Assembly: GCA_903847405.1 (NCBI GenBank)
Contig: CAINDP010000142.1
Coordinates: forward strand, 389-64,388
Length of the DNA: 64,000 nt
Direction of reading: 5' to 3'
DNA from: an uncultured Myxococcales bacterium
GTDB taxonomy: Bacteria > Myxococcota_A > UBA9042 > DTJE01
Part shown: positions 843-64,000 of the stretch, one piece after another
How positions within the stretch are numbered: position 1 is the first letter of the stretch
How the letters are laid out: every line of letters begins with the position of its first letter
Made by a program: the position numbers and the translations under genes
Notes under the pieces: generated by a model
Told to the model about the DNA's origin: nothing
What the model saw: the letters and a program-made list of their open reading frames with translations, nothing else
The model's database searches: none

Positions 843-930
843 TCCCCCGCCCGGATCGGATCCCGCAGACGTCCTTGCCCCACATGTGCTCCATCCACTA
901 CAATGTCGCGGGTTTCCCGAGGGCATGCCG

Positions 931-2364
931 ATGTTTCGACCCTTCTCCGCGACCGTGGCGTTCCTTGCGACGGCCACGGTCCTGGCAACCGCGGCACCAG
1001 CCCTCGCGGCATGCCCCAGCGGGTCCACGCAGGTGGCCGCCACCTGCGGATCCATCGACACGGCGGGATGCTGCGGCACCTTCGAGCGCGTCCGCTTCTG
1101 CGCAGGCGGCGTGCTGTGCGAAACCTACTGCTCGGCCGACTACTGCTACTGGACCGCGTCGTCGTCGAAATACGCGTGCGGCCCCAACCAGTTGGCTGAC
1201 CCCACTGGGGTCCATCCCCGCGAGTGCGGCTGCAACCCGGCCTGCCCCTCAGACCAGCAGTGCGTCGGCGGCGTCTGCCAGTGCGCACCGCAGTGCACCG
1301 GCAAGGACTGCGGCGACGACAGTTGCGGCGGATCCTGCGGCACCTGCAACTCCGGCCCCACGTGGGCCTGTGTCGTCGACACGTGCGTGTGCACGCCCAC
1401 CTGCGTGAATCGCCAATGCGGCTCGGACGGCTGCACCGGCAACTGCGGCACGTGCCCCACGGGCCAGATCTGCACGGGCGCCCTGCAATGCGTGGACAAG
1501 CCCTGCACGCCGGTGTGCTTCGCGCGCGAGTGCGGCGACGACAAGTGCCAGGGGTCCTGCGGGATCTGCCCGTCCGGCGAGACCTGCGACCAGTTCAGCG
1601 GCCAATGCCTGACCAGTTCCTGCACGCCCCAGTGCACCGGGAAGCAGTGCGGCACGGACGGCTGCACCGGAACCTGCGGAACCTGCGCCGAGGGCTCCAC
1701 CTGCAGCGCCCAGGGAACCTGCACGGCGGGTCCCTGCGTGCCTTCCTGCGATGGCAAGGTCTGCGGCAGCAACGGCTGCGAGGGAACCTGCGGCTCCTGC
1801 ACCGACGGAATGGAATGCGACGCCGGGGGCCAGTGCGTCGGCGGTTCCTGCCAGCCCCAGTGCACGGACCGGCAGTGCGGCAGCAACGGCTGCGACGGCA
1901 CCTGCGGCGCCTGCGTCCCGCCGGAAACCTGCGACGCCCTGTTCCACTGCGTCGCGCCCTGCCAGCCCCTGTGCGGCGTGCGGCAGTGCGGCGACGACGG
2001 CTGCGGGGCGTCCTGCGGCACCTGCGGGAACGGCCTGTACTGCGACGACGCCTATCGCTGTCGGGCCGGGACTCCCCCGGACCCGGGCACCGTGGAGGAC
2101 ATCGCGACCAGCGATCGGGGAGGCGGCGATGCGCCGGCGGGCACGGACCTTGCCGTCACCGATCGGGCCACGGACAAGGACGCGTCGGCGTGCCCGACCG
2201 GGTACACGCAGTATTACGGCCAGTGCATCCCCCCCGCCGAATCCAAGAGCGGTGGCGGATGCGCGTCGGGCGGTGTGCCCTCCCCTGCCGGCGCGTTCGC
2301 GCTGCTGACCGTGCTGGCGATCCTGGGGGCGGCGCGCCGTCGCAACCGCCTGGGGCAGGGATGA
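931..2364 (+). CDS. secreted cysteine-rich repeat protein (Myxococcus-type Cys-rich repeat, ~8 copies) with MYXO-CTERM-like C-terminal sorting tail
   Basis: ATG at 931 preceded by GAGGG. Signal peptide MFRPFSATVAFLATATVLATAAPALA. Repeated ~40-aa units C-x-P-x-C-x-G-K/R-x-C-G-x-D-G-C-x-G-x-C-G-x-C (TIGR02232-like). The C-terminus GGGCASGG...AFALLTVLAILGAARRRNR resembles MYXO-CTERM (GC-motif, hydrophobic helix, Arg cluster). Confidence 0.8.
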   Translation: MFRPFSATVAFLATATVLATAAPALAACPSGSTQVAATCGSIDTAGCCGTFERVRFCAGGVLCETYCSADYCYWTASSSKYACGPNQLADPTGVHPRECGCNPACPSDQQCVGGVCQCAPQCTGKDCGDDSCGGSCGTCNSGPTWACVVDTCVCTPTCVNRQCGSDGCTGNCGTCPTGQICTGALQCVDKPCTPVCFARECGDDKCQGSCGICPSGETCDQFSGQCLTSSCTPQCTGKQCGTDGCTGTCGTCAEGSTCSAQGTCTAGPCVPSCDGKVCGSNGCEGTCGSCTDGMECDAGGQCVGGSCQPQCTDRQCGSNGCDGTCGACVPPETCDALFHCVAPCQPLCGVRQCGDDGCGASCGTCGNGLYCDDAYRCRAGTPPDPGTVEDIATSDRGGGDAPAGTDLAVTDRATDKDASACPTGYTQYYGQCIPPAESKSGGGCASGGVPSPAGAFALLTVLAILGAARRRNRLGQG

Positions 2365-2404: not shown

Positions 2405-3394
2405 TCAGAACATCAGCAACTGCACTTCCGACTGCATGGCCACCGCCTCGACGCCGCGAGCGCGGATCCGCCCGGCCACCGCCTCGGCCCCGTGGCCCAC
2501 GGCGATCACCCGCGTGACGCCCGTCTTTTCGACCAGCGCCAGCAGGCCGGCCGGGTCCAGGTGCCCCGTCAGCGGGATGCCTTCGTCCACGCGCATCCGG
2601 GCCAGCACGTCCGGCATCAGGCTGCGCCCGGACAGCCACACCAGGCGAACGCGCTCCAGCCCGGTGACCGTCCGCTTGAACCGCAGGACCTCGGGCAGCA
2701 CCAGGGCATGATCGTGCCGGGGGGCGCCACGGAACTGGCGGGCCGCCCCCGGATCGAACCCCATCACCCGGTACTGCTGGTTCACGGCCGCGATGGACCG
2801 GTGGACCAGCACGGGCACCCCGGCCTTCGTCAGGGCCCGCACGACCTCCTGGGACTTGCCCATCAACGACCCCAGGAACACCGGGGTGTTGCCGCCGGCC
2901 AGGGTGCGGCGCGCCACGTCCACGACCCGGGCCAGGGCGTCGGCGCGTTCCGGGAAGGCCTGCTCCAGGTGCCCGTAGTCCGCCCGGATCACCAGGACGT
3001 CCCCCTTCGGAACCTGCGCGACCTCGGCCATGGCGTGGGCCCGCAGCGCCACCTGGGATGCGTACAGCACGGTGGTTCCGTGCGTCGCCACCCGCACGAT
3101 CGCCGCGCCGGGCATGTGGCCGGAGGGGTGCATGGTGATGTCCAGGGGTCCCAGGTGCAGGACCTTCCCGAACGGCGCCACGAGGGGGGCAAAGTCCTTC
3201 CGCACGACCCGGACCAGGTCGCGGGTGCGATCCGTGCACAGCGCGACGGCATGGCGTCCGGCGTCCCGCACGCGGGCCGAGGACAGGAAGGTGAGGACGT
3301 CGGGGCGCGAAGCATCAAACCACAGGACCGAACCCACCAGGTGGATCCCGCGGTCCCAGGCAAACTCCGGCCGTTCCACCGCCCCCCCTGTCAC
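2405..3394 (-). CDS. beta-CASP / metallo-beta-lactamase-fold protein with degenerate HxHxDH motif (possible pseudo-enzyme)
   Basis: 329-aa frame ending ...VIAVGHGAEAV (beta-CASP motif C, HGE-like). N-terminal WFDASRP-DVLTFLSSARVRD aligns where MBL proteins carry ITHAHSDH, but the His/Asp residues are not conserved. The GTG start overlaps the pilS stop (GTGA). Confidence 0.55.
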   Translation of the reverse strand: MTGGAVERPEFAWDRGIHLVGSVLWFDASRPDVLTFLSSARVRDAGRHAVALCTDRTRDLVRVVRKDFAPLVAPFGKVLHLGPLDITMHPSGHMPGAAIVRVATHGTTVLYASQVALRAHAMAEVAQVPKGDVLVIRADYGHLEQAFPERADALARVVDVARRTLAGGNTPVFLGSLMGKSQEVVRALTKAGVPVLVHRSIAAVNQQYRVMGFDPGAARQFRGAPRHDHALVLPEVLRFKRTVTGLERVRLVWLSGRSLMPDVLARMRVDEGIPLTGHLDPAGLLALVEKTGVTRVIAVGHGAEAVAGRIRARGVEAVAMQSEVQLLMF

Positions 3395-5151
3395 GCCGGC
3401 AGTCGGATCTCGAATTCCGTCCGGACGTACGGCACGCTCGACACGCTCACGCGCCCACCCATCTCCTCGAGCAACTGGGTCACCGTCGCCAGCCCCAGGC
3501 CCGTGCCCCGGGGCTTCGTCGTGTAGAACGCGTCGAAGATCCGTTCCAGGTCCTCCTGGGGAATGCCGCAGCCGTTGTCGATGATGCGCACGACGCCCCA
3601 ACGCCGCCCGCCGTCGGTTTCCGCCCTCAGGCGCACGACCAGCTGGCCCCCGTCGGACATCGCCTCGATCGAGTTCTTGCACAGGTTCAGGAACACCCCT
3701 TGCAGGCGTTGGGGGTCCCCGGTCAGGGCCAGCCCCGCCTCGATGTCGGAGGCCACCTCCAGGCGCGACGCCGCCGGATCGCCCCGCACCACCTGCACGA
3801 CCTGCTCCAGCAGTTCCGACAGGTTCATGACCATGACCTCGCCCTTCCGCGGGCGTGCATAGTCCAGCAGCTCGGTGATCCACTCGTTCAGGCGGTCGGC
3901 CTCCCGAACGACGATGTCCAGGGCGCGCCGATCGTCGCCGACCATTCCGGAGGCCATGGAAAGCAGTTGCGCCGAGGCCGAGATCGCGGCCAGCGGGTTG
4001 CGGATCTCGTGGGCGACCACCGCGGACAGCTTGCCGATCGTGGCCAACTGCTCGTCGGCCTTCATCCGCGCCTCCAGAACCTTCACCGTGGTCACGTCCG
4101 ACACGTCCAGGATGCGCCCCATCATTTCGCCGATCCGCGACACCAGCGGCGTCACCGACACCTTCAGCCAGCGCTGCTCCCCGGAAACGCCCGCCCGCCA
4201 GACCTCGAACGGCTCCCGGTAGTTCGCCATGGGCTCGCGCAGATCCGGCATCAGTTCGAACAGGTCCCGGCCCTTCGACCGGTTCATGTCGATGCCCAGC
4301 ATCTCCTCGGCCGCCCGGTTCACGTGCAGGATCCGATCGTCCAGCCGGCAGGTGACGATGCCCGTGTTGACCGACGTCAGGATCGATTCGTGCAGTTGCC
4401 GCAGGTCCTCCAGGGTCGAACGATAGCGCTCCCTCTGGAGGTCCGACCGCCGCAACTGCTCGGACAGGTAGGACGACAGGATGCCGATGCTGATGAACGC
4501 CACCGCGTTCAGGCCCACCGAGTACAGGACGGCGTTCAGGGACCCCCGGGCGATCACCTCCGACAGGAACCACGGCAACCCGATCTGCCCCAGTTCCATC
4601 AACGCGATCAGGGTCATCATGCTCAGCGAGCCCAGGATCGTCAGGATCGTCCCGGGGCGCCCCAGGATGATCCCGCCCACGACGATGTTCAGCGAAAAGA
4701 AGAAGGTGAAGGCCGAACCCGTGCCCCCCGTGGAGGTGACGAGGACGGCGGACAGCAGGGCATCCTGGGCCATCTGCAGGAACGCGATGGCCTGCAACGA
4801 CCGGCGCCCCTTGACCGTCAGCAGGACCGGAAAGTACAGCGCGGCCGGCACCAGCCAGGCCATTCCGACCCACATCAGGGTGTCCCGGACCATTTCGATC
4901 AGGGACAGGCCCGTGCTGCCGGAAAAGATCGCAGTCGCGGTGACCAGGACCAGGAGGCTGACGATCCGAAGCCACGACAACCACAGCAGTTTCCTGCGCA
5001 GGGTCGCCACCGCCCAGGAGGTCGAGGGTTCCTCGGACCGCTCCCGCAGTTCGTCGCGCAACGGCCAGCGGGCCGGGGTCAGATCCCGGACCTGTGCCGA
5101 TGCTCCCGTATCCGTGGCACCGTCATCCATCCGGGGTTGCTCCAGGGGCAC
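3391..5151 (-). CDS. pilS: sensor histidine kinase, PilS-like (six N-terminal TM helices, PAS, HisKA, HATPase)
   Basis: N-terminal block of ~6 hydrophobic helices followed by a PAS-like region, the H-box (AHEIRNPLAAI) and the ATPase G-boxes (DNGCGIP, GTGLGL). Located immediately downstream of pilC as in Myxococcus and Pseudomonas pil loci. Confidence 0.6.
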   Translation of the reverse strand: MPLEQPRMDDGATDTGASAQVRDLTPARWPLRDELRERSEEPSTSWAVATLRRKLLWLSWLRIVSLLVLVTATAIFSGSTGLSLIEMVRDTLMWVGMAWLVPAALYFPVLLTVKGRRSLQAIAFLQMAQDALLSAVLVTSTGGTGSAFTFFFSLNIVVGGIILGRPGTILTILGSLSMMTLIALMELGQIGLPWFLSEVIARGSLNAVLYSVGLNAVAFISIGILSSYLSEQLRRSDLQRERYRSTLEDLRQLHESILTSVNTGIVTCRLDDRILHVNRAAEEMLGIDMNRSKGRDLFELMPDLREPMANYREPFEVWRAGVSGEQRWLKVSVTPLVSRIGEMMGRILDVSDVTTVKVLEARMKADEQLATIGKLSAVVAHEIRNPLAAISASAQLLSMASGMVGDDRRALDIVVREADRLNEWITELLDYARPRKGEVMVMNLSELLEQVVQVVRGDPAASRLEVASDIEAGLALTGDPQRLQGVFLNLCKNSIEAMSDGGQLVVRLRAETDGGRRWGVVRIIDNGCGIPQEDLERIFDAFYTTKPRGTGLGLATVTQLLEEMGGRVSVSSVPYVRTEFEIRLPA

Positions 5152-5152
5152 G

Positions 5153-6370
<1,218 letters not shown>

Positions 6371-6391
6371 GGAAGGTATCCTCCTGCCCGG

Positions 6392-7537
6392 CTACAGGCC
6401 TGCCTGCGTCAACATGTTTCCCAGTTCCTCGACGTCGCCTGCATGTGCCATGGCTTCCTCGCGGGTGATCATCCGGTCCCGGATCAACTTCAGCAGCGCC
6501 TGGTTCAGCGTCTGCATCCCGAACTTGGTCTGGCCCATCTGCATCTGCGAGTAGATCTGGTGCGCCTTGCCCTCGCGGATCAGGTTGCGGATGGCCGGGT
6601 TCGGCATCAGCAGTTCGATCGCGATCACCCGCCCCTTGCCGTCGGCCCGGGGCAGCAACTGCTGGCTGAGGATGCCCTCGCACACGAACGAGAACTGGGT
6701 CCGCACGCGCTCCTGCTGGTCCACCGGGAACAGGTCCATCACGCGGTGGATCGTCTGCACGGCGCTGTTCGTGTGCAGGGTGGACAGCACCAGGTGCCCG
6801 GTTTCCGACAGGCGCAGGGCCGTTTCCATCGTTTCGGTGTCGCGGATTTCGCCCACCAGGACCACGTCCGGATCCTGGCGCATGACGTAGCGCAGCGCGT
6901 CCGCGAAGTTCAGGGTGTCGGTCCCCACCTCGCGCTGGTTCACGATGCAGTTCTTGTGGCGGTGCAGGAATTCGATCGGATCCTCGATGGTCAGGATGTG
7001 CCCGCGACGGCGCTGGTTGATGGCGTCCACCATCGAGGCCAGCGTCGTGGACTTGCCCGATCCCGTCGGGCCCGTGACCAGGATCAGCCCCCGGGGCCGC
7101 TCGACCAGTTGGCTGACCGCCGCCGGGATGCCCAGTTCGTCGAACGTCATGATGCGCGACGGGATCTGCCGGATGGCTCCCGCGACGCTGCCGCGCTGCC
7201 GGAAGAAGTTCGCCCGGAAGCGGCTGACGTTCCGCCACTGGAACGACATGTCGATTTCGTTCTTTTCCTCGAAGCGCTTCTTCTGCGATTCCGTCAGCAC
7301 GGAGTAGCACAGACGCTGGGTGTCGGGCGGCGTCAGGGGCGGCACCTTCACGGGGTACAGCGAACCGTCCACCCGCAACTGCGGCGGAGTGCCGACCGTC
7401 AGGTGCAGGTCGGACGCACCCTTTTCGACCATCACCTGCAGCAACGCGTGGATGTCCAGGCCGGGATTGGACGATGCAGCGGATGCAGCGGGCCCCGCCG
7501 TCACCTGGTTCCTCGGGTCGTTGGTCGGCGCGTTCAT
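6392..7537 (-). CDS. pilT: twitching motility ATPase PilT (pilus retraction)
   Basis: Walker A GPTGSGKSTT, Asp box, Walker B and His box of PilT/GspE ATPases. 27-aa N-terminal extension relative to typical PilT; the true start may be internal. Confidence 0.9.
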   Translation of the reverse strand: MNAPTNDPRNQVTAGPAASAASSNPGLDIHALLQVMVEKGASDLHLTVGTPPQLRVDGSLYPVKVPPLTPPDTQRLCYSVLTESQKKRFEEKNEIDMSFQWRNVSRFRANFFRQRGSVAGAIRQIPSRIMTFDELGIPAAVSQLVERPRGLILVTGPTGSGKSTTLASMVDAINQRRRGHILTIEDPIEFLHRHKNCIVNQREVGTDTLNFADALRYVMRQDPDVVLVGEIRDTETMETALRLSETGHLVLSTLHTNSAVQTIHRVMDLFPVDQQERVRTQFSFVCEGILSQQLLPRADGKGRVIAIELLMPNPAIRNLIREGKAHQIYSQMQMGQTKFGMQTLNQALLKLIRDRMITREEAMAHAGDVEELGNMLTQAGL

Positions 7538-7545
7538 CGTCCGCC

Positions 7546-9381
<1,836 letters not shown>

Positions 9382-9392
9382 CGCTCTCCCAA

Positions 9393-9426
9393 TGGATCGT
9401 CCCGAGGCGGCTTCGGCTCGGGAGGG
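9393..9426 (-). repeat. short (internally deleted) copy of the palindromic repeat family (copy E), in the pilB upstream leader
   Basis: Plus-strand tggatcgtcccgag-gcggcttcggc-tcgggagg is the reverse complement of the element termini (cctcccgag...ccgaagccg.ctcgggacgatcca) seen at 33974, 37977, 55932 and 57101. It lies 12 nt upstream of the pilB start. Confidence 0.6.
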
Positions 9427-9597
9427 TTGGTTCGGGCGCTACCCGCGCCGCCGGCCCATTCTATCGGCGGAGCCCGCGCTGTGTCAAGGAAACCCCAGGT
9501 GCATCGCGTCGTTGTGGGATGCGGTCCACCGCGTTGTCCGGGCCGGAATTCGAGGCGGGGTGAGGGGCCGGCGACGACCGGCCGGGAGCAGGCGTTC

Positions 9598-31980: not shown

Positions 31981-34194
31981 TCAGGGTCCCAGCGCCGCAG
32001 CCCTGGCCGATGCCCGGGCCGCCTCCTCGGGCCTTCCGGCAGCCGCCGCGACCCGGGACAGGGTCTGCCAGGCCCGGACATACGACGGATCCTCGTCCAC
32101 CGCGCGCTGCAGCCACGGCAGGGCCGCCGCGGGCAGACCGTCGTCCGCCAGCAGGGCACCCAGGTTGTTCATGGCCCGTGGATCCCGCGGGTCCAGCCTC
32201 AGCGCCGCGGCCAGCATCTCCCGCGCCGGGCCTTCCCCGCCCCGCAACGCCGCCAGGGTGGACAGGCCCCGCACCTGGGCGGCCAGGAACGCACGGGTCC
32301 AGCGATCCGCCCCGCCGGCCTGCGACCCGGCGGCTGCCGCCGCATCCAGCGCCGCGGAAACCCCGGCGGCAGGCCCGATCGTCCCCAGCGCGCAGGCCGG
32401 GAACCCGGGCACCAACCGGTCCCGCACCGCCCCGTCCACCGCGCCGTCCCCCGTCTCGATGTAGACCGGTCCCCGGAGGACGGCCAGATCCACGGCCCGG
32501 TTCAACGCCTGCGCCGGCGCCTCGCCCCCCGCCTCGAACGGCATCGTCCTCAGGGCTTCCCACAGGCCCTCCTCGCCGGGCCGCCCGCCGTGCGCCTTCA
32601 GGTGCCGCGTCACGTAGGGCGTATCCGAAAGATGCTGCCGGACCAGGCTCAGCACGTCGGGCCGCACCCCGTCCACGGCCTGCACGCCCAGGAGCGTCGC
32701 GGAAAGGTCGTCCGAACTGGTCAGGACCGTCGCCCCCGGGGGCAGGCCCTCCAGGAACGTGGCGGCGATCTCCCGGGGCTGGACCCGGGTCTTGTCCCGG
32801 TCTGCCGGCGCCATGACCCCCTGCAACACCACCAGCGCCCATCCGGCCACGACCGCCAGGGGCGCCCAGGACGGCCGCTGGACCCGTCGCGCCCCGGCGG
32901 CCAGGGCCTCGACTCCGGTGGCCGACAGGATGGCCAGGACGACCGTGGAAGGGACCAGGACCTGCAGGTCGTTGATGCCCATGGGGTTCACCCGAACCGC
33001 GAACACCACGTCGCCCACCAGCACGCCCAGCAGCGCCACCGCTGCAGCAGGCGCCCTCCGGGCCGTCCGGACCAGGCCCGCCAGCGCAAGGGGCCACAGG
33101 GCCAGCGTGCCTTCCGCGAGGGTCCCCAGGGCCATCCGGAGGTTCGCTTCCATCCGGACCAGGGACACGTCCCCGATCTGCCCGGCGAACGAGCGGCGGA
33201 TCCGGGCCCCCGTCAGGTGTTCCCAGACCCCGGCGGCCGTCGACGGGTCGCCCCAGTTCAGGAGGGGTTCCCGGGACGCGGCGATCGGCAGGTACAGCAC
33301 GACCAGCGCCCCGACGACCATCGCCGCCAGGGCCGTCGGCAGGACCCGCCACGCCGCCGGCCGACGGGCCGTCAACGCCACCGCCGCGACCGCCAGCACG
33401 AATCCCGCCTCGACCGGCCAGGTCACGTGGCCCCCGGCGCCCAACCCGACCAGGAAGCCGCCCAGCACCAGCCAGCGGGCATCGGCACGACGGACGCCGG
33501 CCAGGGCGCAGCCGATCGCCGCGGTCATCCCCGCCGCCGACAGCGCATAGACCTCGGTCGTGGTCCCGTGCAGCCAGGTCGTCGGGCTGGCCAGTAGCGC
33601 GGCAGGCGCAACCAGCGCGGCCCAGGGCAGCGTCCGGGACCCGCTGCCGGCCGGCGCCCCCGCCACGTCCCGGGCAACCGCCCAGGCCGCTGCGGCCAGG
33701 GCCCCCAGCGACACGGCCGACAGGAGGTTCATCCGGAAGAAGGCGTCCCCCGCGGGCAGGGTTCCGAAGGCCCGGCCCAGGAGGCAGAATGCCGGGAAGC
33801 CCGTGGGATGCGGCACCCCCAGGACCAGCGCGGCCGACGCCAGTTCACCGGCGTCCTTCACATACAGCCCCGGCGCCGCCAGCAGCGCGGCCAGGCATGC
33901 CACCGCGACGCCCACGAACACCGCGGTCGCGACCGTCCCCGATACCCCGGTCTGCGGCCCGTGCCCCGATCCTCCCGAGCGCGCAGGTGGAGCCGAAGCC
34001 GACTCGGGACGATCCATTCGACGCCGCCGGGCCTCGACCGCCACCGCGCATCCCCCGGCCGCGGTCATCCCCGCGACCGCCAGCAGCAACAGCAGTCCCG
34101 CCTGTGGCCACAGGGCGATTCCCGACAACAGGATGACGAGGATTCCCGCCAGGGAGGCAAGCACCCGGAACGGCAGGTCCGGCAGTGGCTTCAT
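31981..34194 (-). CDS. DUF2723/TMEM260-like polytopic membrane protein with C-terminal TPR domain (putative GT-C glycosyltransferase-like); repeat copy D lies in-frame near the N-terminus
   Basis: Conserved DAGELASAA...GVPHPTGFP motif after the first TM helix, >10 TM helices, then TPR-like C-terminus (NNLGALLADDG...YVRAWQTL). The start is uncertain (34194 or the ATG at ~34017 created next to the repeat). Confidence 0.65.
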   Translation of the reverse strand: MKPLPDLPFRVLASLAGILVILLSGIALWPQAGLLLLLAVAGMTAAGGCAVAVEARRRRMDRPESASAPPARSGGSGHGPQTGVSGTVATAVFVGVAVACLAALLAAPGLYVKDAGELASAALVLGVPHPTGFPAFCLLGRAFGTLPAGDAFFRMNLLSAVSLGALAAAAWAVARDVAGAPAGSGSRTLPWAALVAPAALLASPTTWLHGTTTEVYALSAAGMTAAIGCALAGVRRADARWLVLGGFLVGLGAGGHVTWPVEAGFVLAVAAVALTARRPAAWRVLPTALAAMVVGALVVLYLPIAASREPLLNWGDPSTAAGVWEHLTGARIRRSFAGQIGDVSLVRMEANLRMALGTLAEGTLALWPLALAGLVRTARRAPAAAVALLGVLVGDVVFAVRVNPMGINDLQVLVPSTVVLAILSATGVEALAAGARRVQRPSWAPLAVVAGWALVVLQGVMAPADRDKTRVQPREIAATFLEGLPPGATVLTSSDDLSATLLGVQAVDGVRPDVLSLVRQHLSDTPYVTRHLKAHGGRPGEEGLWEALRTMPFEAGGEAPAQALNRAVDLAVLRGPVYIETGDGAVDGAVRDRLVPGFPACALGTIGPAAGVSAALDAAAAAGSQAGGADRWTRAFLAAQVRGLSTLAALRGGEGPAREMLAAALRLDPRDPRAMNNLGALLADDGLPAAALPWLQRAVDEDPSYVRAWQTLSRVAAAAGRPEEAARASARAAALGP
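33974..34016 (+). repeat. internally deleted copy (D) of the palindromic repeat family, inside the 5' coding region of the DUF2723 gene
   Basis: cccgagcgcgcagg-tg-gagccgaagccgactcgggacgatcca: both termini of the full element with the ~33-bp centre missing. Read on the minus strand it encodes ...[14 protein letters not shown]... in-frame. Confidence 0.7.
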
Positions 34195-34248
34195 GGACTC
34201 ATCGGTCGCGGCCGATCGCCGGTGTCACGGCGGGGTGCGGCGCGTGTC

Positions 34249-55301: not shown

Positions 55302-55325
55302 CCCTGCCACCAGAGGATCAACCGG

Positions 55326-57089
55326 GTGCGCAGACTCGCAATCGCCGCCGTGCTGGTCGCCACCGTGGGGCTCGTGTTCGGCCCCGTGGTGGGATACGGC
55401 TTCGTCAACTGGGATGACGACCTCTACATCACCGAAAACCCCGCCGTGGATCCCGCGCAGCAGCCCGATTCCGGCCTGCTGCTGACGCGGTCGCTGAACT
55501 ACCCGGTGCCGGTCCCGATCGTCGCGTACCGGTGGGTGGCGTCCGTCGCGGGCTTCGATCCCGGGGCGTTCCACCTGTTGAACCTGGTGCTGCACGGCAT
55601 CAACGTGCTGCTGGTCTTCCTGTTCCTGTCGCGGTACCTGTCCGTCGGCCGCGCCGCCGTGGGCGCACTGCTGTTCGCCGTCCACCCGATCCAGGCCGAG
55701 GCCGTCGCGTGGTGCACCAGCACGAAGGACCTCCTGGCCGCCGGGTTCACGCTGGCTTCGCTGACCGCCAACGATCGGGCGCTGCGCGGCAAGGGCCCCC
55801 CGGGCCGGTGGCTGCTGCTGGTCGTGCTGACGGGCGCCCTGGCCATCCTGTCCAAGCCCTCGGCCTGCGTCCTTCCGGCGGCCCTGGCGGTCCAGGCGGC
55901 GCTCCTGGGCTCCCGGGGCACCCGTGTTCCTCCCGAGCGCGCAGGCGCAGGCGATGGGTTTCCGCAGGAAACTCTCGCCGCAGCCGAAGCCGACTCGGGA
56001 TACTCCAAATGGCACCCGCGGAATCTGCTGGCCTATGGCGCCCTGGTCGGAACCGCGGCGTTCGTGGCCGTGATGGCGGTCGCCTGGTCGGTGTCGTCCG
56101 CCGCGATCCACACGTCCCACTTCTTCACGGCGTCGTACTTCAGCGGCGTGCTCCAGGCCGTCGCGCTGCAGGCCCGTCATTTTTTGGTGCCGCTGGATCT
56201 GCAGCCGTTCTACGTGCGGTGGGTGGGCCTGCCCGCGTTCGACGTGCTGCACGTGACGGGCGTCCTGGTGATCGCCGGCCTGCTGGTCCTGGCGGTCGTC
56301 CGGTTCCGGAACCCCGACCCGCGGCCCCGGCTGTTCCTGGCGCTGTTCGCGCTGTTCTACCTGCCGGTGTCGGGCGTGGTCCCCATCCAGCGTTTCATCG
56401 CCGACAGCTACATGTACCTGCCCCTGGTGCCCCTGATCGCCCTGGCCTGCGTCCTGGTTCCCGAACGCTGGCTGCAAGGGACGGCCCGCCGGACGACCGT
56501 GGTTGCCGCGGTGGTGGTCCTGGCCGTGCTGCTGGCGTTCCAGGCCGCCCACCAGCGATCTCTGTGGGAATCCAGCCGCACCCTGTGGACCCCGGCCCTG
56601 GAAGCGAATCCGACCTCCCACGTGGTGTTCCGGCATTACGCGCAGGCCTGGTCCGGACCCTCGGGCATCGAGCGGCCCGTGGCCGTGACGCCCGAACTGG
56701 TCGAAACGACGATCCGCGAAGGCGCGATGGACAGCATCATGGTGGGCTGGTTCGCCCAACTGCTGCCGGCGGACCGGGCCCTGGCGCTGTTCCTGCGCCA
56801 GGTTGCCGCGGGCCCCGTCGACCTGGACCTCCACCGGAACTTCGTCACGTTCGTCGCGCTGCGGCGCCCGTCCCTGGACGCCACGGGCCTCGACCTGCTG
56901 GGCGTGGCGGCCACGGCCCTGGCCGACGATGGATTGCGGAAGGGCGACGTCGGGATGCTGCCGGCCCTCGCGCGGCTGCTGGCGACCCATGGCCTGGGCA
57001 GCGTCGCCCTGCCCTGGCTGGAGGATGCCGGCCGACGCACCGGCGACCCGCAGTTCGACAACCTCGCCCGATCCCTCCGGGACCCGTGA
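55326..57089 (+). CDS. TMTC/PMT-like polytopic membrane protein with C-terminal TPR-like domain (putative protein O-mannosyl/glycosyltransferase-like); carries repeat copy B in-frame
   Basis: GTG start after GAGGA. N-terminal GFVNWDDDLYITENP motif of the DUF1736/PMT_2-like family. ~10 TM helices. A 23-aa insert (PERAGAGDGFPQETLAAAEADSG) in a loop at codons 203-225 is encoded by the palindromic element. Confidence 0.7.
   Translation: MRRLAIAAVLVATVGLVFGPVVGYGFVNWDDDLYITENPAVDPAQQPDSGLLLTRSLNYPVPVPIVAYRWVASVAGFDPGAFHLLNLVLHGINVLLVFLFLSRYLSVGRAAVGALLFAVHPIQAEAVAWCTSTKDLLAAGFTLASLTANDRALRGKGPPGRWLLLVVLTGALAILSKPSACVLPAALAVQAALLGSRGTRVPPERAGAGDGFPQETLAAAEADSGYSKWHPRNLLAYGALVGTAAFVAVMAVAWSVSSAAIHTSHFFTASYFSGVLQAVALQARHFLVPLDLQPFYVRWVGLPAFDVLHVTGVLVIAGLLVLAVVRFRNPDPRPRLFLALFALFYLPVSGVVPIQRFIADSYMYLPLVPLIALACVLVPERWLQGTARRTTVVAAVVVLAVLLAFQAAHQRSLWESSRTLWTPALEANPTSHVVFRHYAQAWSGPSGIERPVAVTPELVETTIREGAMDSIMVGWFAQLLPADRALALFLRQVAAGPVDLDLHRNFVTFVALRRPSLDATGLDLLGVAATALADDGLRKGDVGMLPALARLLATHGLGSVALPWLEDAGRRTGDPQFDNLARSLRDP
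55932..55999 (+). repeat. full-length copy (B, 68 bp) of the palindromic repeat family, inserted in-frame within a CDS
   Basis: cccgagcgcgcaggcgcaggcgatgggtttccgcaggaaactctcgccgcagccgaagccgactcggg. Confidence 0.8.
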
Positions 57090-57100
57090 TATCCTGCCTT

Positions 57101-60911
<3,811 letters not shown>

Positions 60912-60915
<4 letters not shown>

Positions 60916-62597
60916 TAAATCTGCAGCATGTCGCTGCCGGGATAGTAGTGCCGCAGGATGTCCTCGAACGAAATGCCTTCCTGGGCCATGCCGATCGCGC
61001 CGACCTGGCACATGCCGACACCGTGACCGAACCCGGCGCCCGTGAAGGCGAACCCGCGGCCGCGACCGTCCGAGGCCTCGTCCACCACGAACAGGGACGA
61101 CCTCAACCCGCCCAGCGCCTTGCGGATCCGCAGTTCCGGGGACAGCAGCACCGTGGCCTTGTCCCCCTTCACTTCCAGGCGCAGGATGCGCCCCGACACG
61201 CCGCGCTCGACGACCCGCATCCCGCGGACCTCGCCCGGATCGGTGCCGGTCTGCTCCTTGATCCCCGACCGGATGTCATCGGCGGTCACGGCCTTGCGCC
61301 ACCGGAACGATTCCTTCCCGTACTTCGTGCTGCCGCAGTACAGCCCCTTGGGTGGCGTCTGGATGAACGCCTTCACGGCCTCCTCCGACCGTTCGCCGTC
61401 ATAGACCTTCGTCCCGTCCGGCGCGTCCGGCACCCCCTTCAGGTACTCGTGCCCGGACCCCTGCCAGACCGCGCCGCCGCTTTCGGAGTGGCCGCCGCAG
61501 TTGGCAGCGTAGACCGAATCCACCAGCCCGCCACCGGCAAACAGCATGCGGCCCCGGGTGTCTTCCACGGCCTTGCTGGTCCGCGGATCCTCCCGGGTCA
61601 GCCCCTTGTAGACCTGGCAGTGGACGTCGGCGCACACCATGTAGGGATCCGCGGTATGCCGGTTCCCCAGCTTGGCGAACAGTTCGCCCCGGGCGCAGGT
61701 CGCCTGGGCCCGCAGCGCCGCCGGCGGGGCATCCACGTAGATTTCCGACGGAACCAGCCCCTTCAGCAGCGTTTCCGCGTCCACCGCGTTCACGGCCGCC
61801 AGCTTGCCGTTCCGATCCGGCGTCAGGACCAGGCGCCCCCGGTAGGAGCGATCCTCCCGTCCGTGCCAGTTGAACCCCTTCCCGAACTCGACCGACCGGA
61901 CCGTGAACGACCGTCCCTCCGCGGGAGCGATCATCACCATGCCCGGGACCGTCAGCGCCACATCGACGCCCGCGCAGCCGACCCGCACCGTGCCGCGGGG
62001 ACGCTCCACGACCTCCTCGAACACCTCCAGGGTGCCCATGCCGGTCTTGGCCGCCAGTTCGTCCCGGCGCGCCCGGGCGGGATCCGGCGCATCGAACGGT
62101 GCGTCCTCCACCAGGGTCGTCGTGCGATTGTCCAGGACACGCCCGTAGAAGCCGAAGATGCTGCCCCGCTGGAAGGTCCGCACGCCGGACGCCCGGCCCT
62201 CCCACGAGGCCCGCTCGCGACGCAACCCGTCCAGGTCCCGGGACGGCAGGCGCGACAGCCCGACCCAGTAGCGGATCCGCGCCGGGATCCCGTCCTCCAG
62301 GCGCGCCGTGCAGGTCGTCTTGCCCTTCCCGATCCGCGTCGACGGCCCGCCGATGCCCTCGGGCAGGAACTCGAAGGGCCCCTCCGACTCGAACACCACC
62401 TGCGTTTCGCCCTCGACCAGGCCGACCGTCACGATCGGCACGTTGTCCTTGGTGAACAGGAATTTCGTCTGGTACAGCAGGGCCGTCCGGTCACGACGGG
62501 TGAAGTCCTCCCCCTCCTGCTCCTGGGCCAGGGCCGGGGAGGCGACGAGGAGGAATCCCAGGAACGGGAACAGGGCACGCACGATCACCGCCACCAT
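60912..62597 (-). CDS. SpoIID/LytB domain-containing protein (putative peptidoglycan amidase enhancer/lytic transglycosylase family)
   Basis: Signal peptide MVAVIVRALFPFLGFLLVASPALA, then SpoIID-like region (…YAANCGGHSE…YLKGV…). ATG at 62597. Confidence 0.75.
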
Positions 62598-62772
62598 GAT
62601 GCCGTTCCTGCTGAAGGGGATTCGATGAGGTCCCTCACGTCGACGCAATCCTGCCCAACTCCGCGGGAACCGTCAACGGTCTGGATACGGTCTGGAAGGG
62701 GAAAACGGGGAGGCCCGGATACGCGAAGGGCGCCCTAAGGCGCCCCCGCGTGCCGGTGGAAGGAGAGAAGTA

Positions 62773-63348
62773 CTACTCGGTCTCGTTGTCGACGAAGTAG
62801 GCAGACGCGCCGACCTGGCTGCACTCGCCGTACATCGCGTTCGGATCCGGGAAGATGATCCGCTGGAACGTGGACTTGACGGTGTCGCAGTCCAAGTCAG
62901 CGTGGGCGTTCGCCGTGGCGTGCGCCGAGTTCAGGACCTTGCCGTCCGAATTGTACGAGTACACGAAGTAGACCTGGTCCGTGATCTGGAAGGTCAGGGC
63001 CGACCACGTGGCGGTGTTCCACGCAGCGGCGTTCGTGTCGCAACGGCCGTCGCTGTCGCCGTCGAGCGTACCGCAGCAGGTCGTTCCGGGGGTCAGGTCC
63101 TGGCTGGTCGGGAACTGGCAGTAAATGCGCGTGCCGGCAGCGGACACGTGGGGGGCGGTGTAGTAATACGCCGAACCCTTGTAGATCTTGTCCAGTTCGT
63201 CGATCGCTTCCGTCGTCTTGGCGCGGCGCATGTACTTGATGAACGCCGGGACCGCGATGACGGCCAGGATGCCGAGGATGGCCACGACGACCATCAACTC
63301 GACCAGCGTGAAGCCCTTCAGGTTCAGTTTGCGGAACTTGTTCAACAT
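62773..63348 (-). CDS. pilA: type IV pilin (PilA-like major pilin candidate)
   Basis: AAGGAGG RBS. Prepilin leader MLNKFRKLNLKG|FTLVELMVVVAILGILAVIAVPAF (class III signal, Glu+5). 191 aa with 4 Cys in the C-terminal region. Confidence 0.8.
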   Translation of the reverse strand: MLNKFRKLNLKGFTLVELMVVVAILGILAVIAVPAFIKYMRRAKTTEAIDELDKIYKGSAYYYTAPHVSAAGTRIYCQFPTSQDLTPGTTCCGTLDGDSDGRCDTNAAAWNTATWSALTFQITDQVYFVYSYNSDGKVLNSAHATANAHADLDCDTVKSTFQRIIFPDPNAMYGECSQVGASAYFVDNETE

Positions 63349-63434
63349 GGCACCCTCCTTTTGAAACCACCTTGCCAGCAACCCGGCAACCCACCGCCCA
63401 CGGTTCGCCGGGGCGATCTTCGGTCACTATCTAA

Positions 63435-63450
63435 AGCAATTGGCGTGCCA
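63435..63450 (-). promoter_or_regulatory. sigma54 (RpoN) -24/-12 promoter for the pilin gene: TGGCAC-GCCAA-TTGCT
   Basis: Minus-strand reading caggcgTGGCACgccaaTTGCTttag matches the TGGCAC-N5-TTGCW consensus exactly, ~85 nt upstream of the pilin ATG. Confidence 0.6.
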
Positions 63451-63711
63451 CGCCTGTATTTCTGTAGTTACATGCAGTTGCAGGAGCAGACCTCCGACGG
63501 ATCTCCGCAGACTGACGTTTCGCGACAGCCTCAAGTGACATTTTACGTCACCGAGGCCCTTGGGATTCCCCTTCGTCGGGGTGCCGCCCGAGGGGGGCAA
63601 TGGGTCCGCGGAGCACGTGTGACCCGTCCCGCCGCCGGATCCGGACCGTGCCGCCGTTGACCGACGCCGGGCCGGCCGTATATGGTGGATGCGCCCATCG
63701 ACGAGGCCTTC

Positions 63712-64000
63712 ATGGCGCTGCGCGTCGCGGTCCTGACCCTGATTGCCGCGGCGGCCTTCCTGGTCCGGGCGGGCCTGGGCGCCGACCTCGTGGACGGTTC
63801 CCGGGTCCTGCCGTTCCCGGACGACCCGCCCTACCATTGGATGCGCCTGGAACGCCTGCTCCAGGGCCCGATCGCGCCCGACGCCATCGACCCGATGGTG
63901 GCCCACCCCCAGGGGGCCGTCGCGCATTGGCCCTGGGGGTTCGACCACCTCCTGCACCTGATCGCGGACGTGGCCGGCGCGGGGACGGACGGGGAGGCGG
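63712..64000 (+). CDS. hypothetical membrane protein, N-terminal fragment (continues beyond the window); possible GT-C family member
   Basis: ATG after GAGG. MALRVAVLTLIAAAAFLVRAGLG... TM helix then PFPDDPPYHWMRL motif. The frame is open to the end of the window. Confidence 0.4.
   Translation, partial: MALRVAVLTLIAAAAFLVRAGLGADLVDGSRVLPFPDDPPYHWMRLERLLQGPIAPDAIDPMVAHPQGAVAHWPWGFDHLLHLIADVAGAGTDGEA

Follow-up and report, generated by a model that had tools for sequence, protein, structure and literature searches.

A predicted sigma-54-dependent pilA-like gene with candidate tandem activator sites, unlinked from pilBTCS in an uncultured freshwater myxobacterium

The stretch of DNA analysed here (64,000 nucleotides from an uncultured Myxococcales bacterium; hereafter the window) carries a pilA-like prepilin gene on its reverse strand at 62773–63348, running from an ATG at 63348 to a stop codon at 62775–62773 and encoding 191 amino acids plus the stop codon. 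The first 12 residues, read directly from the sequence, form a class III signal peptide (63313–63348, reverse strand; MLNKFRKLNLKG), with a predicted prepilin peptidase cut between Gly12 and Phe13 that leaves MLNKFRKLNLKG on one side and FTLVELMVVVAILGILAVIAVP on the other (also read onward as FTLVELMVVVAILGILAVIAVPAFIKYMRRAKTTEA). The mature protein of 179 aa is a 'large' type IVa pilin whose anatomy, likewise read from the sequence, includes Gly-1, Phe+1, Glu+5, Gly14 and Pro22, and G12, F13, T14, L15 and E17 are invariant across 125 members of the pilin family. Both the Pfam model N_methyl (PF07963; 33.7 bits, cut-off 21.2) and TIGR02532 (32.8 bits, cut-off 16.3) match the protein, and a ribosome-binding site, AAGGAGG, lies 5 nt before the ATG (63354–63360, reverse strand), with GGAGG kept in the orthologue alignment. 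The initial annotation of this DNA had described a 191-aa prepilin with a class III leader (G|FTLVELM) and a strong ribosome-binding site, and these data bear out both descriptions. A longer pilin ORF from a TTG start, proposed by the automatic ORF call, is not supported, as the ribosome-binding site precedes the ATG and all homologues begin MLNKF or MLxR.

We found 698 homologues of the pilin, all from metagenomes or metagenome-assembled genomes labelled Myxococcales, Myxococcota or Deltaproteobacteria. Among the 120 listed, full-length identity is 58–95%. The first ~60 residues are almost invariant across the close family, which also shares six invariant cysteines (C77, C91, C92, C103, C154 and C176), of which C154 and C176 are candidates for the disulfide bond of a C-terminal D-region as in type IVa major pilins; a D-x-D-x-D-G-R-C-D stretch resembling a DxDxDG loop is present in the pilin family, and the conserved C-terminus is ETE. 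An N-glycosylation sequon, N-E-T, at the C-terminus was dropped as a family feature because its Asn varies (N/Q/R/H/G/K). Sequence matches in the PDB are confined to the α1 helix and the N-terminal 50–60 residues, the best being Geobacter PilA-N and Myxococcus xanthus PilA (8tj2), both with E=1e-12, followed by Neisseria and Pseudomonas pilins, with GspG the weakest (E=0.0026). The Myxococcus PilA equivalog model NF041775 matches residues 11–62 only, at 53.1 bits against a cut-off of 400, and leaves the globular domain unmatched. An AlphaFold2 model of the pilin computed from a 125-sequence alignment that includes more distant relatives reached a pLDDT of 90.6; with a 29-sequence alignment the pLDDT was 55 and the model unusable, a problem that the larger alignment fixed. 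The model contains a long α1 helix (residues 15–64), an αβ-loop region and strands at 129–134, 144–150, 159–167 and 178–187, which we read as a four-stranded sheet and a pilin architecture. Foldseek detected no significant fold match in the PDB, the top hit being a full-length alignment to M. xanthus PilA 8tj2 (E=0.29, TM 0.35). The window gene belongs to a distinct, Cys-rich family of large pilins.

In the window, the pilin gene has an STT3-like gene and genes for GH4, SpoIID-like and LigA proteins as neighbours; in the close clade (pilin at least 69% identical), the pilin usually has a GH4 gene on one side, accompanied in some loci by an STT3-like gene, and a gene with a SpoIID/LytB domain on the other. 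The STT3-like gene adjoins the pilin gene divergently, shares a 333-bp intergenic region with it and encodes a 643-aa GT-C membrane glycosyltransferase of the STT3 superfamily, followed by sugar genes for a DegT aminotransferase and an oxidoreductase. The canonical oligosaccharyltransferase motif WWDxG was not found beside the pilin, and the STT3-like protein has PWGYGH in place of the catalytic WWDYG. It is very doubtful that this neighbour is a pilin-modifying glycosyltransferase acting on the invariant C-terminal ETE and co-regulated from the shared intergenic region; were it so, the enzyme would be a new analogue of the pilin glycosylation proteins TfpO and TfpW, built on an oligosaccharyltransferase scaffold.

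Upstream of the pilin gene, 86 nt before the ATG, lies a predicted sigma-54 (RpoN) -24/-12 element, TGGCACGCCAATTGCT (63435–63450, reverse strand), of the form TGGCAC-N5-TTGCT. The exact motif TGGCAC-N5-TTGCW occurs once in the 64-kb window, with 0.04 occurrences expected, and any occurrence was seen in 4 of 100 shuffled sequences. When one mismatch is allowed, 1.4 matches are expected by chance, and the pilin promoter is the sole site in the window with at least 10 of the 11 bases. At this same stringency the motif, which contains GG-N10-GC, precedes the start codon by 70–180 nt at about 40 of the 79 related pilin loci; over all locus DNA, with the pilin promoters included, its rate is 0.010 per 350 nt of a single strand. 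Nearly all loci encoding a pilin at least 58% identical to that of the window carry it, with an N5 spacer that varies freely, and an alignment of 15 upstream regions contains only three conserved islands amid DNA that does not align, namely the -24/-12 element, the ribosome-binding site and a block ~100 nt further upstream. On the pilin strand, no sigma-70-like site was found between 62400 and 64000. By these comparative criteria, the pilin promoter appears to be functional and no chance match, and the element that the initial annotation had placed ~85 nt upstream of the gene proves to be unique in the window and conserved in orthologues.

The conserved block further upstream holds a perfect palindrome, GTGACGTAAAATGTCAC (63535–63551, unstranded), of the form GTGAC-N7-GTCAC with an A/T-rich N7, which is the sole exact copy in the window and which we designate predicted activator site 1. 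Its centre lies ~118 nt upstream of the predicted transcription start, and the site is ~101 nt upstream of the -24 element; the corresponding distance is -100 to -102 in most close-clade loci, and in a second clade the palindrome is found at about -175. Of 31 pilin upstream regions, 19 contain the exact core TGAC-N7-GTCA; its frequency across 1.1 Mb of locus DNA predicts ~0.7. A weaker dyad, CTGTCGCGAAACGTCAG (predicted activator site 2; 63512–63528, unstranded), lies 23 bp downstream of site 1, a distance common to the window and its nearest relative, L001; a second dyad at an offset of -77 or -78 is present in 6 of 15 close-clade loci (the window, L001, L002, L007, L009 and L010). We propose GTGAC-N7-GTCAC as a candidate activator recognition sequence, and the two dyads have the appearance of a typical tandem NtrC-type enhancer. 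The initial annotation had pointed to 63450–63700 as the region in which to look for upstream activator sites, and both dyads fall there; together with the sigma-54 element, their conservation in relatives supports its comparison with the RpoN-type promoter of M. xanthus pilA. Between the activator sites and the promoter lie about 85–100 bp of spacer with ~50–60% G+C, against 69% for the window; such an A+T-richer spacer would favour DNA bending and, judged by eye, contains no convincing IHF site.

To delimit the transcription unit, we took the start at ~63425 from the position of the -12 element, which gives a predicted 5' UTR of ~77 nt with GC-rich hairpins (63349–63425, reverse strand). The fold of this UTR (MFE -32.7 kcal/mol) has a z-score of only -1.2 and is no better than that of shuffled sequences, RNAalifold predicted no pairs in a consensus structure for the UTR from 12 orthologues, and an Rfam search of 62400–64000 gave no match. 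Beyond the stop codon, a 42-nt GC-rich hairpin of the terminator type (62715–62756, reverse strand) has an MFE of -33.4 kcal/mol and a z-score of -2.71, with 0 of 200 shuffles as good. It has no classic T-tract, and transcription may therefore read through into the downstream SpoIID-like gene; terminator hairpins without a T-tract are common in high-G+C bacteria.

A comparison with L001, whose pilin has 95% amino acid identity to that of the window, delimits the same unit in another way. The two have only 846 bp in common, a block that opens with the palindrome's first base and closes shortly beyond the hairpin. Within this block, identity is 96% over the activator sites (measured on the segment holding both), 40% in the spacer between these sites and the -24 element, 81% in the -24/-12 element, 38% from the -12 element to the UTR, 89% in the UTR, 93% in the coding sequence and 98% in the terminator hairpin; the flanks are at 42–48%. 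In the coding sequence, 25 codons differ synonymously and 10 non-synonymously. This footprint of conservation marks, independently, the same functional elements that we predicted from the window, and it shows that the pilin unit sits at different genomic sites in the two lineages, evidence of a relocation in one relative. In L001 the unit is flanked by unrelated genes, for FadL, GreA and a 7TM-PAS-GGDEF protein on its upstream side and for PanE and ADC on its downstream side. Judged from its sequence, the pilin gene would be a self-contained single-gene unit made up of two dyads, a spacer, a promoter, a leader with ribosome-binding site, the coding sequence and a terminator hairpin.

The genes for pilus assembly lie about 53 kb away. 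A pilB-pilT-pilC-pilS cluster (3391–9438, reverse strand) encodes the assembly and retraction motors, the platform protein and a PilS-like sensor kinase: pilB (7546–9438, with a likely ATG at 9381; Pfam T2SSE and MshEN), pilT (6392–7576; T2SSE), pilC (5153–6391; T2SSF) and the kinase gene (3391–5151; PAS, HisKA and HATPase), all on the reverse strand. The kinase matches the 6TM_PilS model at 15.9 bits, a weak, sub-threshold match that nevertheless spans the whole model, and it is 40% identical to the bona fide PilS of a related locus, L024. Upstream of pilB, we found a sigma-70-like promoter with a near-consensus TTGACA-N18-TAGAAT at 9487–9458, and neither a second sigma-54 promoter nor a second activator site. 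Six-frame motif scans of the 64-kb window revealed no other prepilin motif and no GAFTGA/ESELFGH activator motif, and the window contains no pilR and no rpoN. An ORF following pilS (2405–3388) was considered as pilR and rejected, as its product resembles a β-CASP/MBL exonuclease. The initial annotation had described a pil motor locus lacking both pilA and pilR, with the pilin unlinked from it, and this description stands; the search that it proposed for an enhancer-binding protein (EBP) yielded none within the 64-kb window. The other window genes examined have housekeeping or envelope functions, and include genes for IF-2, NusA, Der, RbfA, GroES/EL and LigA, genes for a peptide chain release factor (PCRF and RF-1 domains) and an AIR synthase-related protein (AIRS domains), and genes for FHA-domain proteins and several GT-C glycosyltransferases.

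Related loci place the pilin in a recognisable context. In L024, whose pilin is 58% identical to that of the window, Pfam assignments give the order pilB-pilT-pilC-pilS-pilR-small ORF-pilin, with a significant 6TM_PilS match for PilS and REC, Sigma54_activat and HTH_8 domains in PilR. In L016 (pilin 59% identical), tblastn detected homologues of each of the five proteins, arranged likewise, and the gene order of both loci matches M. xanthus pilBTCSRA. PilB, PilT and PilC of the window are 62–70% identical to their counterparts in L016 and L024, and PilS is 35–40% identical. Both loci also have the sigma-54 promoter together with the palindrome, perfect in L016, where pilR is adjacent, and with one mismatch in L024. 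Homologues in Nannocystaceae (~35% identical) also follow an EBP gene, and their promoter and activator site are weak or absent. In the close clade, no EBP gene is linked to the pilin except for one ~6.5 kb downstream in L009, and close relatives have neither pilR nor rpoN at less than 10 kb from the pilin. This distribution is most economically read as a departure of pilR and pilA from the cluster in the window's lineage, with pilBTCS staying together.

Together, these observations suggest, with a probability of about 0.8, that the window gene of this uncultured freshwater myxobacterium is orthologous to pilA and organised as an unlinked sigma-54 unit that would be activated in trans by a PilR-type protein. 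We regard this as the best reading because the palindrome recurs where the pilin follows pilB-pilT-pilC-pilS-pilR. In the mechanism that we propose, a PilR-type response regulator of the NtrC family would be encoded elsewhere in the genome and phosphorylated by the PilS-like kinase retained in pilBTCS, thereby acting on the pilin gene in trans. PilR would bind the two dyads, loop the DNA to contact the closed complex of the sigma-54 holoenzyme, and use ATP to generate the open complex at the pilin promoter. After insertion into the inner membrane, the prepilin would lose its leader to prepilin peptidase, which cuts behind Gly12, and the PilB/PilC/PilT machine, whose genes lie 53 kb from the pilin gene, would polymerise it. 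What we infer in this scheme is where transcription starts, which protein is the activator, that PilS is coupled to PilR and how abundant the pilin is in the filament; the sequence elements, their conservation and the synteny in relatives are observed.

The sigma-54 promoter could be genuine and GTGAC-N7-GTCAC nonetheless be bound by a different NtrC-like EBP, one that responds to another signal than PilS–PilR autoregulation. We consider this unlikely. It would fit with a pilR that is linked neither to pilS nor to the pilin in the window's clade, with the many NtrC-like regulators of myxobacteria, one of which, NmpR, is documented to cross-regulate pilA expression (PMC6211767), and with a palindrome unlike the PilR hallmarks of Pseudomonas aeruginosa, TGT-N11-AGA and GTCT (PMC6058289). 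PilR is nevertheless favoured as the activator because the perfect and one-mismatch palindromes of L016 and L024 occur at loci with a PilR-type gene between pilS and the pilin; moreover, a PilS-like kinase without its partner has been kept in the window.

It is likewise conceivable, and in our estimate quite improbable, that the protein serves as a minor, alternative or paralogous pilin, or as a pseudopilin of a type II secretion system, with the major pilin encoded elsewhere. Such a role would agree with the restriction of matches to known pilins to the N-terminal 50–60 residues, with the 2–5 copies per genome, some in tandem, of more distant family members, and with the one to seven pilA homologues often present in myxobacteria (PMC6060248). 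Against it, members 58–59% identical to the window pilin occupy the pilA slot after pilSR, and each close-clade genome yielded one copy (two hits, L002 and L003, share identical upstream sequence). The scores of the pilin against the GspG, GspH and GspJ models are far under their cut-offs (34.7 bits against 88.85 for the GspG model TIGR01710), close-clade loci have, up to 10 kb from the pilin, neither a gsp gene nor one for a minor pilin, and the gene appears monocistronic, with its own strong promoter, ribosome-binding site and terminator, unlike minor-pilin or gsp operons. We therefore favour pilA, and the encoded protein is most likely the major subunit of a type IVa pilus. The initial annotation had named it a PilA-like major pilin: the PilA-like assignment draws support from pilin anatomy and the synteny of L016 and L024, and the low NF041775 score (53 bits against 400) speaks against it, while the status of major subunit is a probable one, drawn from synteny and anatomy. 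Finally, a coincidental TGGCAC-N5-TTGCT, with transcription from an unrecognised sigma-70-type promoter, is almost certainly not the explanation, for despite the chance matches expected once a mismatch is allowed, an exact match is rarely expected, the motif is kept at ~40 related pilin genes well above its background rate, the element is conserved beside spacers diverged to ~40% identity, and the pilin strand offers no sigma-70-like site.

Earlier work on myxobacteria has described both the control of pilA by sigma-54 and PilR and the occurrence of unclustered pilA genes, and the biology of the window gene is textbook for the phylum. In M. xanthus, pilA has a sigma-54 promoter with PilR as regulator (PMC6211767), and the logic of a sigma-54 promoter with an enhancer is common to pilA of M. 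xanthus, P. aeruginosa and Geobacter (PMC6211767, PMC6058289, PMC3333781). The window gene resembles M. xanthus pilA in encoding a type IVa prepilin with a closely similar α1 helix, in the 'large' size of the mature pilin, a class discussed for Myxococcota (179 aa in the window, 208 aa in M. xanthus; PMC11046646), in its -24/-12 promoter with a predicted NtrC-type activator, and in the pilB-T-C-S-R-A order found in the window's relatives. It differs in a globular domain whose sequence shows no recognisable homology, in the six invariant cysteines, DxDxDG-like loop and C-terminal ETE of its family, and in the location of pilR and pilA outside the pilBTCS cluster in the window's clade.

With the pilA/PilS–PilR/RpoN system of P. 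aeruginosa, the window gene shares sigma-54-type transcription and a response regulator that binds upstream, both predicted for the window gene, as well as a six-transmembrane PilS-type kinase (a weak match in the window) and regulators that are not adjacent to pilA (PMC6058289). Here the differences are the TGT-N11-AGA and GTCT elements in place of the GTGAC-N7-GTCAC dyad, and the arrangement of the window genes, in which pilA and pilB do not diverge from each other and a separate sigma-70-like promoter precedes pilB. The M. xanthus NmpR sites, GCGCA-N5-TGCGC, are similar in forming two close dyads upstream of an intergenic sigma-54 site (PMC11841059), and differ from the window's GTGAC-N7-GTCAC in half-site and spacing; the pilA promoter of M. 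xanthus is not bound by NmpR (PMC6211767, PMC11841059).

An unlinked pilA is not unusual, since unclustered pilA genes are known in Nannocystineae and Sorangiineae (Sharma et al. 2018, PMC6060248). Like the window gene, these lie apart from the other T4aP genes and encode a pilin with cysteines in the middle of the C-terminal domain (PMC6060248); they differ in that promoters and activator sites were not described in that study, and the window's clade comprises uncultured freshwater genomes that keep pilBTCS. The window gene leaves the understanding of pilin regulation unchanged. What it adds to the systems above is a candidate activator sequence, the exact limits of the unit, its apparent relocation in one relative and a distinct family of Cys-rich large pilins, in the form of a cleanly delimited and comparatively validated, predicted sigma-54/enhancer-dependent pilin gene from an uncultured freshwater myxobacterial lineage. 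In such genomes, GTGAC-N7-GTCAC could be used to predict the PilR regulon and to annotate pilA genes that are unlinked from the pilus machinery.

Comparison of the pilA-like prepilin gene (62773-63348, minus strand) with its nearest relative, the related locus L001, whose pilin is 95% identical in amino acid sequence, shows 89% nucleotide identity from the activator site through the terminator (window 62712-63551; L001 9797-10636). The flanks of this unit in L001, a MAG contig, are wholly unrelated to those in the window. Because so similar a unit sits in unrelated flanks, sequence comparison suggests that it was relocated or horizontally transferred as a whole. Within the unit, the 5' UTR (63349-63425, minus strand, in the window) carries a GC-rich hairpin in every orthologue, ~30-45 nt before the ATG and often of the form GCCCG-loop-CGGGC. 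No consensus structure could be derived across the orthologous 5' UTRs, and the window 5' UTR folded no better than its shuffles. More distantly related pilins of the family come as tandem duplicates or are scattered in 3-5 copies per MAG (loci L030, L068 and L079; MAGs CAZJHX, JBLINL, CAUZEG, BTVJ and CANMLD), and many of these multi-copy genes are missing the sigma-54 motif.

In the window, the pilin gene shares a 333-bp intergenic region with a divergently transcribed gene (63682-64000, plus strand, running past the window end), identified by profile matches as encoding an STT3-superfamily GT-C membrane protein. The whole gene, present in the related locus L080 (2364-4295, minus strand), encodes 643 aa. 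Matches to Pfam STT3 (32.7 bits) and NCBIfam archaeo_STT3 (106.8 bits) are restricted to the N-terminal membrane half of the protein, which has PWGYGH at the place of the WWDYG motif. Genes for GH4, DegT aminotransferase and GFO/IDH/MocA proteins follow the STT3-like gene. Of the loci whose pilin is at least 69% identical, about half have the STT3-like gene beside the pilin. Each of three further large membrane proteins in the window is an actual or potential GT-C glycosyltransferase: one is TMEM260-like with TPR repeats (31981-34224, minus strand), one belongs to the PMT_2 family (55302-57089, plus strand), and one, of 541 aa, is without a family match (59290-60915, plus strand). Such proteins are unusually dense around the pilin gene.

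At the pil cluster, the likely pilB start (ATG 9381) is preceded, at a distance of ~77 nt, by a near-consensus sigma-70-type promoter (TTGACA-N18-TAGAAT; 9458-9487, minus strand). As judged from promoter motifs, then, different sigma factors appear to serve the motor genes and the pilin. The slot directly after pilS, taken by pilR in relatives, holds a beta-CASP/MBL-fold ORF (2405-3388, minus strand) with a distant likeness to ligase-associated DNA damage response exonuclease (a match of 74.7 bits, far under the cut-off). Also adjoining the cluster is a gene (886-2364, plus strand) for a 492-aa protein built of cysteine-rich repeats of ~40 aa (C-x-x-x-C-G-x-D-x-C-G-x-C-G-x-C), which has a MYXO-CTERM sorting signal and in which no Pfam domain was found.

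Six cysteines, in residues 77-104 and 154-176, are invariant across the pilin family, allowing up to three disulfides, as is the C-terminal ETE (residues 189-191). We know of no described pilin motif that matches this six-cysteine pattern, the ETE or the family's DxDxDG-like stretch at D96-D104, the last of which resembles calcium-binding loops.
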